A stretch of DNA of 37,493 nucleotides from a virus. Taxonomy: Duplodnaviria > Heunggongvirae > Uroviricota > Caudoviricetes. Position numbers: made by a program. This document shows, piece by piece, positions 24,001 to 30,000 of the stretch. Numbering within the stretch: position 1 is the stretch's first letter; each line of letters opens with the position of its first letter. Where the stretch lies: IMG/VR virus record IMGVR_UViG_2585427621_000010. One strand, given 5' to 3'.

Positions 24001-27000
24001 CCGCAGTAACGATATCCTTCGCCAGGCTTCCGCTTATTTTGCGAAGGCGGAGTTCGACCGCCTCTGGAAAAAATGATGCCACTGCTGGATAAGCTGCGTG
24101 AGCAGTACGGGGTCGGACCGGTATGCAGCGAACTGCATATTGCCCCGTCAACGTATTACCATTGTCAGCAACAGCGACATCATCCGGATAAACGCAGTGC
24201 CCGTGCGCAGCACGACGACTGGCTGAAGAGAGAGATACAGCGCGTATACGATGAAAATCATCAGGTGTACGGTGTGCGTAAAGTCTGGCGTCAGTTGTTA
24301 CGGGAAGGAATCAGGGTGGCCAGATGTACAGTGGCACGTCTCATGGCGGTTATGGGACTTGCCGGTGTTCTCCGGGGTAAAAAGGTCCGTACGACCATCA
24401 GCCGGAAAGCCGTTGCCGCAGGCGACCGCGTAAACCGTCAGTTCGTGGCAGAACGACCTGACCAGCTGTGGGTGGCTGATTTTACTTACGTCAGCACATG
24501 GCAGGGCTTCGTCTATGTGGCGTTTATCATTGATGTGTTTGCCGGATACATCGTGGGGTGGCGGGTCTCATCGTCTATGGAAACGACATTCGTGCTGGAT
24601 GCGCTGGAGCAGGCGTTGTGGGCCCGTCGTCCGTCTGGCACCATCCATCACAGCGATAAAGGCTCTCAGTATGTGTCACTGGCCTATACGGAGCGACTAA
24701 AAGAAGCCGGATTACTGGCATCAACAGGGAGTACAGGCGACTCGTATGACAACGCGATGGCTGAGAGCATCAATGGTCTTTACAAAGCGGAGGTAATACA
24801 CCGTAAGAGCTGGAAAAACCGTGCAGAAGTGGAACTGGCCACACTAACGTGGGTGGACTGGTATAACAATCGACGATTGCTGGGAAGGCTGGGCCATACT
24901 CCTCCGGCAGAAGCAGAAAAAGCTTATTATGCTTCCATCGGAAACGATGATCTGGCAGCCTGAGTTCACAGATAAAACACTCTCCAGGAAACCCGGGGCG
25001 GTTCAGTACTTCTCCGACGAAAGTCAGTACTGGCTGTTTTTTTATTATGCTGCCGGTGCATTTATCTCCAGCATCAGACTTTCTATCTCAACGCCATACG
25101 CTGCATTTTTTGTAACATCCGTCAGCGTCAGCGCATTCAGTCCCAGTGTCAGACTGTCTTTTATAACCTGGAATGCCGGGCCAGCCACTCCATTCAGTTT
25201 CGGAGTAACCATGGCACTGCCGGCGGTGAACACCAGCTCCAGCGTCTGCCAGTCGTTACCGTAATCGCCGAACTCCCCCAGCTTCGTGTTTCCGGCTTTC
25301 CTGTGATGCATCAGATTCACCCTGCCGTCAGTGGTCTGAGTGAAGTACGACATCAGGAACGGATTACCGGTACCCGTCATCGCCACACCATCAGGAACGG
25401 GAGCATCCGTATACAGATAAATCCCCAGCCCGAACTGATTGTTGGTCAGTGCGCCTGACAGGCGGAACTTACAGGTCAGTCTGCCGCCCTGTGTCAGCAG
25501 GGTAATTGCGTCATCCACCGGATGCGTCAGGGACCAGGTTTTATTGCTCTGCCTGGTGATCTTAAATACACCATCTGACAACTGAATTCCGCCATCCTTA
25601 ATGCTCCAGCCCTGCGCAGCAGCCTCTCCGGCTGCCGGCAGCAGGGAGATTGTGCGAACGGACGTATCTGCAGACGGACCCGATGGCGTGTTGCCGCCGG
25701 GCGAGGGTTTGATTTCCGGTGCCTTACCACTGATGAAGGCTGAGGTGCGCCCGGCTGCGTTCAGAATAGCGGTTGCAGACGATCCGGAACTAATGCTCCT
25801 GCGCGCCCATGACTGAATGTGTTCGGCGGTTGATGATACCTGGTTTCCATTCGTTCTCGATGCCGCACCGTAATATCCTGATGCCGGAATATCCGGATCT
25901 TCTGCCGGCGCGTTAGTGGCGGTATTGACGCCGTTACCGTCTGTCATGAAGGGCACAAAATAAACGCCCTCACTCTCCCTGTTTTTATACCCGCCGTACA
26001 CGGTGTCGTACTGGGTAGCGTATGTATTTTTCCAGTAATACGTCGTGTCACCACAAATCCACGGCACATCTGCAGCGCTGCCACCATGGCACTGCGCGTT
26101 AAACACGGAGAGGTCAGCACGAAACTGTGTCAGCATGGCTGTAAACAGCGCAGGTTGCTGTGCGTGGGTGGCGGCGCTCATGTCAAACTCACCCTGCATC
26201 CAGCAGACGGCCAGCAGAACGTTTTTGGGATTTTTCTGCAATGCCGCTTTTGTGCGGGAAATCAGATCCTGATATAACGGCTTGCCCACCCCCCAGCGTG
26301 CCGAATCCTGACTGGCCCCCGTGGACTCGCTGAATGTCCCCTCCGCGCCCTGGGTAAATGCCGAACCACCACGACAGCATGGTACCAGCAGGATCCCCGC
26401 GTTATTCGGGATATACGGGAGCAGTTTTTTGGCAATATGTAAACCCTGGCCGACACAGCCGTACTGCCCTTTGCTCAGGTCAGCCCTCGGATGATTCAGC
26501 GTACTCATATCCTGCACATCATGCAGACAGTGGTCAGCCGGAATAATATCGTTATATCTGCAGGCAGCCCCGCCCGGCGTCACTGTACTGCGGCGCGCCA
26601 GCTGTTTAATGCGCGGATCCGGAGCATCGTATGAATCCGGCAGCGGAAGCCCTTCACCGTAAGCCATGGCATTGGACTGCCCGGCCAGTACGATGACGTA
26701 GTACCAATCCGGCTCAGATGAAGGGCCGACCTGTGGCTCTCCTTCAATAGCCACCGCCTGCATCAGTGTGTACGGCGTAATGGCAACCGGTCCGCCGTAT
26801 GGCTGCCAGCCCTCTTTCAGTTTGTGTGTCAGCTTTTCCGCAAGGTCTGACGGCGACGCCGCCCTGACAACATCATAATGTTTAATCGACATCGAATTTC
26901 TCCCGTGTAGAGGAACAGAGTTAAAAAGCCGGAAGCGGAATCAAATCACAGGATGACCATCTGCCAGTGGCTGGTCGTAAAAAAAGGCCGCGCCATGCGC

Positions 27001-30000
27001 AGCCGAAAATAAAGGGATAACGATGATAGTTTGAGAAAAACAGAAATAACACTTTTGTGGCAAAGCATGGTGCCGGGTGCCTCCCGGTGAATTCAGTATC
27101 AGCACCTGAATCCGCGATTACCCCATATTCCTTCTTGCTGATTGCCCCACCGCACAGGGGGATTCACCATGCAGAAGTGTTTTTAATAAACAGCAAACAA
27201 AAAAATCAAGCATTATGCAGGCTGTTTCTTTTTATCACCGGCCACAGCAATACCATAATGCCGCAGACCAGCACCCCATCCGCCAGCACCGACATGATTC
27301 TGCTGGTGAAATCCACCATCACCACCAGAAACAGCAGGAGTGCAGCCACAGTCAGGCGCAGTTTTACCGTCACAGGTAATTCTCCAGACGAAGACCCAGA
27401 ACACCGGCAATCTCTTCCAGCACCTTGCGCTCTTCCGGCTCAATTTCGCCGTCTGCCTCCGCAATGGCCACCGCCACATCCAGCACATCTTCCGCTTCAC
27501 GCGTATCGTGTTTCACATCCTCGATCTCACGTAACGCCGCACGACGACCAGTTTTAAAGTTCGTATCCAGCTGACCGATAATGGTTGCGCTAATCGCATT
27601 AATTTCTGACGTAAACGCGTACAGCGCAGGCTGATTACGCAGTACCTGTTCGATCTTCGCTTTCTCGGATGCCTCACATTCACCATCTGCACAGGCCACC
27701 AGGTATGCGGCGTTAATCACCACCTGTGCCAGATCGCGTTTTTCAAACTTTTTAATTTCCGTTGCCGCTCTGCGGGCTTTTTTTACCAAAAATACCAAAC
27801 ATCGTGACGTTCCTTTGGGTGGGTGAGCCAACGCCCGGGAGCGATCTGCCCACAGAGAAAGTCACACTGACCACTCCATAAGCTCCCCCCGAAAGGCTCT
27901 GTGGTTGGTATGCGCCGGGCGTGGTGCGGATACAAAAAAGGTCCGCAAAAGCGAGCGAGGGAAAATAAGTGTGGTACGTTGTACTGGGTTCGAACCAGTG
28001 ACCGATTGCTTAGAAGGCAATTGCTCTGTCCGGCTGAGCTAAAAACGCAGAATACCGATAATGGACCGCCATCGGAGACTCGAACCCCGCGAAACCAGCT
28101 TCGAAGGCTGGCGTTCTATCCCGATGAGCTAATGGCGGTATGTGATGGTGGCCCTTGCTGGATTTGAACCAGCGGCCTGGCGATTATGAGTCGCTCGCTC
28201 TCACCACTGAGCTAAAGGGCCGGGCGCAGGATAATAACGTTACGAAATCAATGTTGCAAGCATTCAAGAATCACCTGGTTAAAAATTACCCTTGCTTCCT
28301 CCACCAGCGCATTCACCATGTCTATCCGAGATAAGTGGCACAAAAAAACCCGCTTGTGGGCGGGTTTTGTTTGCTTTTGCCATCACGTACAAAATCGGCA
28401 AAATATCAGATTTGCATGAAATATATGCCTTTCAATCTACTTTTGCAACACTTTGCTTTGAAAATGCCGCCTTTTGTTTTGAACGCGTTCTCATTACAAA
28501 CAATAAAGCCTCACTATCCAGTCGGTGAAAAATGTGTTTCATTGCAACCCAGTGACGAGTAAATGTTTTGGACCAGTTTTTAGTTGTCACTCCCACCAGT
28601 AATGCCAGCTCCTTGTATTCATAACCTTCCCCACCAAAAAGTTCTGCTTTTACTGCCTGCGCCGCCAGCCAGATTAATTTTTTCAGGCGTTCCTGCGTTT
28701 TCCCTGCAATTTTTCTGGTACCGGATTGAGTATTAAATTCATTCCACGCCCACTGTGTTATCGCGATCTGATATTCCCAACAAATACTCCCGCTGTAACA
28801 CCACAACAACCAGGCTTTATGATGTTCTTCAAGAGACAGAACAGCCCGCCGCCACGATGATGTCGAAAACTCAACCGGACTGACCAGAGGAATTGACGTC
28901 ACCTTCGCCAGCGATTGCTTTCCCGGGATTGGTGGATTATCCCGCGTTATCATTTTTCCAGTCACTTCATCGCGGTACCGGATTTTTTTTCGCCTGTAAC
29001 GCCCTGTATCGAACATGACATTCTCCTGCCAGGCTTCAAGCTGACCTTTTGTTGCCCCACTCAAATCGGCGGTAGCGATAATGAGCAGCTCACGCACAAA
29101 CTGTAAATAGTGGTTATTCATGCGCACTCCAGTTCTGTGATTTTTATCCCCAGCCGCTCACCAGGAACGAGCTGACCGCGCACAATATTGATTTCATCAA
29201 ACTGCTCATCGTCCATTAGCAACCCCGCATGCGTCAGCGCATCCAGCGGCGCTTTCAGAATATTGTCCAGGTCACGGCGGCGCTTATCCGGTGGCTCGGC
29301 AATAATCTTTATCGCCAGCCTTCCGGACAGGCTTAATTTCAGCCGCTGCTGGCGAACAATAAGCGCCACAGCCCGGCGATAACGCTCACCGGCTTTTGAT
29401 ACAAAATATGTGCTGCCACGACGTCGCCAGTAGGTGTTCACCGTCGGCGGGTAAGGTAAAACCAAATCTATGAGCATCAGTCACCTCTTTTACCCGAGCA
29501 CGCCAGTCGCAAAGGCGTGATCAAGAAAACGAAAAATTAACTCAATCTGAGAGCCGTACTTTTTCTCAAACTCCAGCGGGTCTGCATGAAGTTCGTTGTG
29601 GTGCTCCCGGCACAACGGTAGCGTGAAAATATCGTGGGCCTTTGTCCCCATTCCCCCCTGACCATGACCAATCAGGTGATGCGGATCGTCAGCAGGCTTA
29701 CCACAACACGCACACGGCTGTGTCTTTACCCAGCGCGTGTATTTCTCATTAACCCAGCGGCAACGTTTAGGCCGCCTCATGAACGATTCAGGAGACTCCG
29801 GATCAACGGCGATACTGACAACCGTTTTTTTCTGTGGTGGATTTTGTTGCTGGTGGACGTGAAGTGGCAGCGCAATATTTTTTGTGCGCTGCTTCAGTAT
29901 GCTGATGGCTGTCTGTTCTCCCGGTACGATGTCACTCTCACGGTATACGGAGCGGATTTTTTCCGCTGGTAATCCCAGCGAACGACGCGCTACTGCCTCA

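Follow-up and report, generated by a model that had tools for sequence, protein, structure and literature searches.

Sequence analysis of a tciA–tciB cassette, with a frameshifted TerB-family gene and a predicted structured leader, at the stx position of a lambda-like prophage

In the late region of the IMG/VR virus record IMGVR_UViG_2585427621_000010 (37,493 nucleotides, referred to here in its entirety as the window), the cargo found where Shiga toxin (Stx) phages carry their stx genes is identified by its sequence as a two-gene cassette, tciA–tciB, together with a small RNA (sRNA), and not as a lone gene. The first gene encodes a TerB-family protein, but in this copy its frame has been shifted by one additional A close to the start, and the leader upstream of it, about 140 nt in length, is predicted to pair with the gene's own Shine-Dalgarno (SD) sequence. 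As judged from a 7.1-kb stretch around the cassette, which is 99.87% identical to prophage Sp14 of Escherichia coli O157:H7 Sakai and to its counterpart in EDL933, the source element is a lambda-like prophage of the Sp14 type; all cassette features, and the late genes around them, lie on the minus strand. What the cassette is and how it is built can be stated with something near certainty. The wider reading, namely that this is an accessory "moron" cassette of the late operon, impaired in this copy, controlled through its leader and having some role at the membrane, is one that we favour with moderate confidence if the differing strengths of its parts are blended into a single judgement.

As annotated, tciA occupies positions 27370-27798 and encodes 142 amino acids from a TTG codon at 27798 (MVFLVKKARR...; ECs_2749 / WP_001303558.1). 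That the cargo belongs to the TerB family, as the original prediction proposed, is borne out by a profile search of just the kind it called for, the match to Pfam family PF05099 scoring 45.4 bits against a cut-off of 24.4 (E=1e-11), as well as by assignment of the product to PHROG 632 ("tellurite resistance", E=2e-65) and by a phmmer comparison with the solved TerB structure, Protein Data Bank (PDB) entry 2JXU (E=3.9e-7, residues 14-136). An AlphaFold2 model of TciA is all-helical with six helices (pLDDT 82, pTM 0.75), and in a Foldseek search with this model the only clear matches are the chains of PDB entry 2H5N (probability 1.00, TM 0.53-0.62, E=8e-3), which we take to have a TerB-like fold. 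Two acidic motifs of the form ADGxxxxxE, A37-D38-G39...E45 and A115-D116-G117...E123, are invariant or nearly so in 32 homologues. With TerB of the terZABCDEF cluster for tellurite resistance, phage inhibition and colicin resistance (KP-TerB, the protein of entry 2JXU) TciA shares its Pfam family, its fold, a similar length, the two ADGxxxxxE motifs and a hydrophobic N-terminus; in contrast, no neighbours of a ter operon (terC, terD, terZ or terA) were found beside tciA in the window or in the related loci inspected, and the partner gene encodes a 55-residue DUF3927 protein, where TerB of the ter cluster has TerC.

The original prediction described a single protein followed by some 480 bp without a convincing open reading frame (ORF), and this part of it was mistaken, as that interval holds a second gene, an sRNA and a terminator. 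The second gene, tciB (27206-27373, 55 amino acids; ECs_2748 / WP_000216649.1), matches the DUF3927 family (PF13064, E=1.7e-16) and PHROG 1470 ("TciB-like", E=2e-29); its GTG start overlaps the TGA stop of tciA as GTGA, and the hydropathy profile of its product has two hydrophobic segments, with peaks at residues 5-21 and 26-48. Directly after tciB comes an sRNA of the STnc100 family (27029-27201; Rfam RF02076 over the full length of the model, 100.8 bits against a gathering score of 47, E=3e-22), which forms the downstream boundary of the cargo slot. A terminator scan then finds an intrinsic terminator-like hairpin, GGCUGCGC-AUG-GCGCGGCC followed by seven U residues (27004-26977), which is the probable 3' end of the sRNA and cassette transcripts. 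Both tciB and the sRNA are intact in the window copy. A combined RNA-seq and Ribo-seq study of EDL933 lists an sRNA named STnc100_9 at 1177 reads per kilobase per million (RPKM), and its coordinates suggest that this is probably the STnc100 of the window.

Nor does the idea that the cargo had so far gone unrecognised hold, given that the Sakai annotation has both ECs_2749, as "TciA/TerB-like protein", and ECs_2748, that RefSeq has both proteins, and that the genes are homologous to tciA and tciB of phage P1. Annotation of the pair goes back to the genome papers of Sakai and P1, and the finding made here is real but ordinary; the literature searched contained nothing relevant on ECs2749, ECs2748 or DUF3927.

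Where the cassette sits is of wider interest. Along the minus strand (5' to 3') the genes succeed one another in the order DUF968, RusA, Q, a pR'-like promoter, a hairpin with a T-run, three tRNAs and the cargo, followed by a DUF1737/SASA/DUF6645 esterase, IS629, holin, DUF1327, lysozyme and Rz. Gene calls, Pfam searches and ARAGORN thus agree with the original prediction that Q, tR', tRNAs, cargo, esterase and lysis genes succeed one another as they do in Stx phages. The tRNA cluster (27972-28221), found by both ARAGORN and the Rfam tRNA model and annotated in Sakai as ileZ/argN/argO, comprises tRNA-Ile2(CAU) at 28146-28221, tRNA-Arg(UCG) at 28062-28138 and tRNA-Arg(UCU) at 27972-28048, and it forms the upstream boundary of the slot. 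In blastn comparison with the Stx2 prophage Sp5, homology runs through all three tRNAs as far as 27923, 49 nt past the last tRNA-Arg, is then lost, and returns at 27190, where the STnc100 sRNA starts. These breakpoints confirm the further claim that the cargo lies in the stx slot, and place tciAB, on sequence grounds, at the same insertion point as stxAB, between tRNA-Arg(UCU) and the STnc100 sRNA and downstream of Q. What fills the slot differs from phage to phage: stx2AB, at 1369 bp, in Sp5; the leader plus tciAB, at 732 bp, in the window; and only about 80 bp in the stx-less phage phi296. STnc100 has been reported to lie 75 nt downstream of stx2B in Stx2 phages (PMC12370729). The stx2AB cassette of the Sp5/933W type therefore shares with the cassette described here its slot and its homologous flanks (Q-pR'-tR' and the Ile/Arg/Arg tRNAs upstream, STnc100 and nanS-p downstream), but it codes for an AB5 toxin unrelated to a TerB protein and a small membrane protein, and its 5' region also differs, there being no match to the leader in the Sp5-type locus. 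At base-pair resolution, then, the breakpoints show that stxAB and tciAB can stand in for one another as cargo, with a shared tRNA flank on one side and a shared sRNA flank on the other, and they are useful in reconstructing how toxin genes have been gained and lost in Stx phages.

Comparison with other genomes shows that tciA and tciB form a conserved two-gene module. Relatives of TciA, at 36-94% identity, were surveyed at 33 loci (taking one genome per species) that range from Pantoea and Serratia to Pseudomonas, Xanthomonas, Photobacterium and Oceanisphaera; a DUF3927-like ORF follows the TerB gene directly and on the same strand at 29 of them, and a 56-residue ORF with two hydrophobic segments can be found after the TerB gene even where the DUF3927 profile missed it. 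Among phages, the TerB and DUF3927 pair corresponds to tciA–tciB of P1, where it lies between tRNA genes and is joined by a third small gene, tciC; it is also present in phage Evi, in phage JLK-2012 (from O55:H7, with the order Q-tRNAs-tciA-tciB-yjhS-S) and in the jumbo Salmonella phage pSal-SNUABM-04, while many jumbo phages of Erwinia have an annotated TerB homologue at the matching position (for these the TerB gene alone was looked at) and phage 434 has tciB by itself. The module is thus very widespread, in P1-like, lambdoid and jumbo phages and in Pseudomonas islands. Conservation in related prophages, on which the original prediction depended, is strong for the TciA family, though the window allele itself shows decay. 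The copy in P1 resembles that of the window in having a TerB protein of about 143 residues that starts MFGxxFGKK, then an overlapping gene for a small DUF3927 membrane protein, in adjoining phage tRNA genes, in being accessory and in belonging to PHROGs 632 and 1470; it differs in that DNA identity reaches only about 67% and over part of the gene only, in that P1 has tciC in addition, and in that the P1 gene is in frame and belongs to a plasmid-prophage, whereas the window gene is frameshifted and belongs to a Q-dependent late operon. In P1 both tciA and tciB are non-essential as judged by CRISPR interference (PMC10695390). About 100 nt upstream of P1 tciA there is also a sequence, CACCGGGAGGAACCCGGCACC, with a likeness to the STnc100 core hairpin (UCACCGGGAGGCACCCGGCACC). 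The idea that tciAB is generally linked to tRNA genes was considered and rejected, tRNA neighbours being present at only three of the 33 bacterial genome loci; tRNA genes do lie beside tciAB in phages (P1, JLK-2012, the jumbo phages and the window), and this proximity probably reflects co-location in phage accessory regions.

The second main result concerns the state of tciA in this particular copy. The original prediction had pointed out that an ATG at 27802, opening the sequence MFGIFGKK, is out of frame with the TerB body, and translation confirms this: the ATG at 27802-27800 now opens an ORF of just 16 codons (27752-27802, MFGIFGKKSPQSGNGN*) that stops at 27752, and the TerB body lies in the +1 frame relative to it. 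This ATG is nonetheless the ancestral start of the gene, as its equivalent opens 37 homologues, those of P1, Pseudomonas and Xanthomonas among them, with the sequence M-[FL]-G-x-[FL]-x-K-K. The run of seven A residues predicted to separate the two frames is indeed present, although at 27784-27778 and so one base away from the 27777-27783 originally given. Phage JLK-2012 and a second prophage of strain 86-24 have the sequence of the window but with six A residues, and there the gene reads in frame from MFGIFGKKARRAATEIKK... to give 143 amino acids; compared with these in-frame A6 alleles, tciA in the window has thus gained one A (+1), eight codons into the gene.

Whether the additional A might be a homopolymer error or a genuine frameshift had been left as a choice, and of these only the frameshift stands. 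An error of sequencing or assembly is rejected, as Sakai and EDL933 are identical to the window over 27150-27950 and in about 287 complete genomes the best match is to the exact 161-mer that spans the A7 run; each of the 23 records sampled at 100% identity comes from an O157:H7-type strain. (A6 and A7 alleles were counted from evenly spaced samples of the matching records using this 161-mer; a 100-mer with a band of at least 99% is unsuitable for the purpose, one gap amounting to 99.0%.) That the frameshift is real and derived is accordingly beyond reasonable doubt. Related alleles have gone further. In ESBL15 and O111:H11 the same A7 allele is accompanied by a change of GAG to TAG at the invariant Glu45 of the first ADGxxxxxE motif, and the Prokaryotic Genome Annotation Pipeline (PGAP) calls both of these copies pseudogenes. 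Records in two further identity classes without length change, at 98.8% and 97.5%, make up roughly another third of those matching, and they would appear to carry this A7-plus-TAG type of allele. A protein-based scan of IMG/VR viral contigs, which returned only near-identical E. coli copies, gave 92 distinct tciA 5' regions, of which 66 are in frame and 22 of the A7 type, half of the latter (11 of 22) being truncated as well. The ESBL15 and O111:H11 alleles also have a substitution adjacent to the TAG (the two changes being equivalent to window positions 27666 and 27670), and rare database proteins have Trp (TGG) at the codon for Glu45, which are possibly revertants of the TAG.

Given that sister A7 alleles have acquired a stop at Glu45 and truncations, selection on the gene appears to have been relaxed after the frameshift, and from its sequence the tciA copy of the window is most likely a hypomorph or a young pseudogene; that it is functionally impaired we consider likely, with about two parts of confidence to one of doubt. 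The weak TTG at 27798 that serves RefSeq as a rescue start yields a product (MVFLVKK...) without the conserved N-terminal FG-x-FG motif; this codon arises from the overlap of the Phe-Gly codons and lies 4 nt after an ATG that is itself well placed with respect to the SD sequence (AGGA-8 nt-ATG). The contrary view, that the A7 allele is fully functional, being translated from the TTG with a neutral change in its first five residues, can call upon a TerB body ORF that is uninterrupted in the window and in the approximately 287 O157:H7 genomes, upon an N-terminus that in the TTG frame is still hydrophobic before its two lysines, and upon the use of this start by both PGAP and the Sakai annotation, with the exact 142-residue protein present on at least 1000 contigs. 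It nevertheless seems improbable to us: the TTG is a by-product of codons found in all alleles and overlaps the ORF of the better-spaced ATG just upstream, the MFGxFGKK sequence that its product loses is conserved out to Pseudomonas and P1, the sister alleles have a nonsense codon at an invariant residue, and the O157:H7 alleles deviate in addition at the near-invariant Ala26 and at the conserved aromatic residue 36. A different possibility would be that the A7 run is a site of programmed recoding or of phase variation, through +1 ribosomal or transcriptional slippage or through replicative switching between A6 and A7. On A7 the tRNA-Lys re-pairs perfectly in the +1 frame, near-identical A6 and A7 alleles coexist even within one genome (strain 86-24), and other N-terminal frameshift variants of tciA exist. 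Tracts that give efficient slippage in E. coli are longer than A7, however, the codon that follows the run is AGC and so neither slow nor a stop, and about three quarters of the distinct variants, together with all distant homologues, are plainly in frame, making the two-frame arrangement the exception; moreover A7 is kept exactly in all 23 sampled O157:H7 records with no visible switching, the exact A6 version of the window allele is rare (one of 40 sampled records), and A7 alleles go on to acquire the nonsense mutation, all of which leaves recoding or phase variation a very slim prospect indeed. Impairment being the preferred conclusion, it matters that the frameshifted allele is passed on by RefSeq under WP_001303558.1 as though its protein were intact, the TTG serving as an artificial start, as pangenome and association studies of O157:H7 will in consequence treat a likely null allele of tciA as functional.

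The third element of the cassette is its 5' leader, at 27797-27936. From the tRNA flank up to the ATG, a stretch of 120-140 nt is conserved among the window, JLK-2012, Evi, the jumbo phages, Pantoea, Pseudescherichia, Franconibacter and Buttiauxella, and when these sequences are aligned the changes are visibly compensatory. The predicted parts are a hairpin, H0; a long imperfect hairpin made up of helices P3 and PK, at the base of which an invariant CCUUU is paired with the SD sequence AAAGG; and an alternative helix, P1 (CCACAGAG/CUCUGUGG), in which the 5' flank is paired with the long hairpin's apical loop. Two covariance models were built, R1 consisting of H0, helix P1 and a hairpin P2, and R2 representing the fold with the long hairpin. 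The window scores 146 bits with R1, other copies 85-163 bits; R2 gives the window 112 bits and recovers the same loci. When 16 distinct sequences are aligned with MAFFT, 94.5% of cells are paired at the R1 pairs, compared with 38-50% when the partners are slid along the alignment, and double changes are seen in 11 pairs where 2.7 would be expected (a figure reached in 0 of 500 shuffles). In the R2 alignment, with 31 distinct rows, 94.6% of cells are paired, compared with 37-47% after sliding, double changes occur in 23 of 35 pairs, and the anti-SD:SD helix is paired in 100% of cells. The R2 alignment was fitted to the structure, and the alignment-free control was a comparison of duplex energies between cognate and permuted strands; for each helix the cognate strands did better in every one of 2000 permutations, the energies being -12.0 against -6.7 kcal/mol for helix P1, -16.3 against -14.2 kcal/mol for PK and -12.5 against -8.8 kcal/mol for P3. 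RNAalifold run on the MAFFT alignment returns H0 and helix P1 only, gaps being misplaced in the other helices, and thermodynamic folding gives a long hairpin of -47 to -59 kcal/mol in most copies.

Since there is no linker at the base of the hairpin, the P1 fold and the long hairpin are probably alternatives to one another, although a compact pseudoknot is also conceivable; during transcription, helix P1 and hairpin P2 would form first. In the window a U has been lost from helix PK, and the predicted stability is about 13 kcal/mol below that of JLK-2012. The tract of G residues in the 5' strand of PK (27885-27891) varies from 5 to 12 G among copies, and it is the U following this tract in the consensus that is missing from the window (GGGGGGAGC vs GGGGGUGAGC).

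Rfam 15 gives no match to the leader at E<=1, either in the window or at four other loci, and the leader sequence was not found in the literature searched. Its distribution is broad. A pattern scan of viral contigs gave 120 leader loci, nearly all followed by a tciA-type gene, and upstream of tciA more than 100 copies can be counted over viral contigs, jumbo phages and enterobacterial genomes. In the jumbo phages it begins directly 3' of a tRNA, and in the window about 35 nt beyond the 3' end of tRNA-Arg. P1 is an exception in having no match to either R1 or R2. The window has one copy only; elsewhere, weaker copies (25-64 bits) occur within the same prophages in front of antirepressor genes of the ANT/KilAC and P22_AR_N types and of two unknown ORFs. 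Other leader copies, given by our own locus handles, are at L006:1698-1846, L105:260-408 (minus strand), L058:13777-13925, L049:7084-7229, L014:7445-7566 and L126:154-279 (minus strand). As it precedes antirepressor and unknown genes as well as tciA, the leader is a module and not a TerB-specific device.

From the predicted folds, the balance of the evidence leans towards the leader acting as an element of translational control. That it represents an undescribed family of cis-regulatory phage RNAs, locking up the SD sequence in front of tciA, antirepressors and other genes and spread over lambdoid prophages, jumbo phages and enterobacterial islands, is put forward more tentatively, at rather less than an even chance. 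The structured 5' leaders of lambda cIII and N and the RNase III sites of T7 are likewise cis-acting, and share with it alternative pairings and a duplex that contains the ribosome-binding site; what sets the window leader apart is the absence of any relation to these in sequence or in Rfam, its architecture of H0, a hairpin of some 30 bp and a helix between 5' flank and apical loop, and its occurrence in both lambdoid and jumbo phages. The intergenic hairpins of T7 and the leader of lambda N are processing or stabilising sites of the RNase III type, and the leader might similarly be no switch at all but a site of this kind in the late transcript, parting the cargo messenger from the tRNAs. 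Its duplex, some 25-30 bp long and broken by an internal loop, its position on the 3' side of a tRNA and its presence before unrelated genes of the same late regions (the antirepressor genes included) would all suit such a site; yet the base of the hairpin pairs with the SD sequence in every copy, which points to translational control, and helix P1 covaries as well, for which a simple cleavage site would have no need. Processing as the whole explanation is thus possible but doubtful, bearing in mind that the two readings are not mutually exclusive. Identity with the sRNAs PasA or PasC is unlikely, these being sRNAs that end in a terminator of their own (as judged by their description); if anything in this region corresponds to them, it is the element that ends at the terminator just upstream of the leader. 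If translational control is indeed its function, an SD-sequestering leader common to tciA and antirepressor genes would offer a handle on how accessory phage genes are silenced or switched, and a true switch would make it a common control point for when prophage morons and antirepressors are translated, its trigger being perhaps a ligand, a processing event, the origin of the transcript or temperature.

A function for the cassette can be proposed by analogy. TciA would be a small cytoplasmic TerB-domain protein, and the overlap between the stop of tciA and the start of tciB makes it probable that the two are translated together. TciB might then anchor TciA at the inner membrane, or partner it there, the two forming a split version of the membrane-tethered TerB proteins, with translation of tciA probably remaining off until the leader hairpin is refolded, opened or cleaved. 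Such a pair could act on, or monitor, the physiology of the envelope or membrane in infected or lysogenic cells, and our preferred guess, prompted by the names given on homology, would be protection against membrane-directed insults (superinfecting phage or colicins) or some form of membrane "surveillance". TerB has been described as amphitropic or membrane-associated, and forms part of the defence systems Bunzi, Shango and Dionysus. In the proteins BnzA, SngA and DinB of these systems the TerB domain has been proposed to work at the membrane in "membrane surveillance", as suggested here for TciA; the TerB protein of Bunzi and Dionysus has transmembrane helices of its own or partners that contain them, while for Shango the likeness is in the TerB domain only. 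Unlike these systems, tciAB has no helicase, ATPase or pore-forming partner, and it is encoded by phages, lytic ones among them. A membrane-protective function must be rated as a minority possibility, though the leading one that we can offer.

A number of points weigh against the reading as a whole. The A7 allele is annotated by PGAP as an intact protein of 142 residues and the body ORF is open in O157:H7, and residual expression driven by the TTG, or rare slippage on A7, could still be taking place. Interaction between TciA and TciB is read from gene overlap and co-occurrence, and the regulatory role of the leader from predicted structure, while the names that link TciAB to tellurite, colicins or cell division come by homology only. 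No defence model of PADLOC-DB 2.0 matches either protein (TciA reaches only PDC-S48, at E=0.005 and 13.9 bits, and TciB nothing). Finally, lytic jumbo phages carry the pair, which counts against a purely lysogenic-conversion role. This last point would be better accommodated if TciAB were a factor of counter-defence or host takeover, either a decoy or antagonist of the TerB membrane-surveillance defences of the host or a regulator of lysis timing: the jumbo phages in question, of Erwinia and Salmonella, are strictly lytic, the host systems Bunzi, Shango and Dionysus defend against phages (Dionysus specifically against jumbo phages), and in lambdoid phages tciAB has its place in the late operon shortly before the lysis genes. 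Against this must be set that no similarity to known anti-defence proteins emerged (no search aimed at them was made), the presence of tciAB on the chromosomes of Pseudomonas and Xanthomonas within islands that are perhaps not phages, and the normal growth of P1 without tciAB on a laboratory host, and we regard counter-defence as unlikely, and as somewhat less probable than protection of the membrane.

Some further features of the surrounding region may be recorded. The antiterminator gene Q occupies 28432-29127, and just past it lie a pR'-like promoter, TTGCAA-17-TATATT, and a hairpin with a T-run (28345-28448); this stretch gives sub-threshold Rfam matches to the prophage sRNAs isrK and isrJ and likely corresponds to the short pR'-tR' transcript. 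A second promoter-like site is present directly 5' of tRNA-Ile2, at 28259-28231. In tRNA-Arg(UCU), position 27976, on the 3' side of the acceptor stem, is T in the window and C in Sakai and EDL933 (ACAACGTACCA vs ACAACGCACCA). The next late gene after the cassette encodes the nanS-p-like esterase (25045-26892; DUF1737, SASA and DUF6645 by Pfam and RefSeq annotation), in which five single-base indels relative to Sakai and EDL933 fall within about 65 bp at approximately 25776-25840; with a net change of -3 nt the ORF stays open (615 as opposed to 616 amino acids), about 20 residues being read in another frame, and the cluster has the look of poor sequence quality in an older assembly. As in Sakai Sp14, an inserted IS629/IS1203 with its orfA and orfB (23750-24963, plus strand) separates the esterase gene from that of the holin (23225-23431), and downstream of the lysis cassette, at 20556-20870 on the minus strand, there is a gene for a transcriptional activator of the PerC family (Pfam, E=2e-44).

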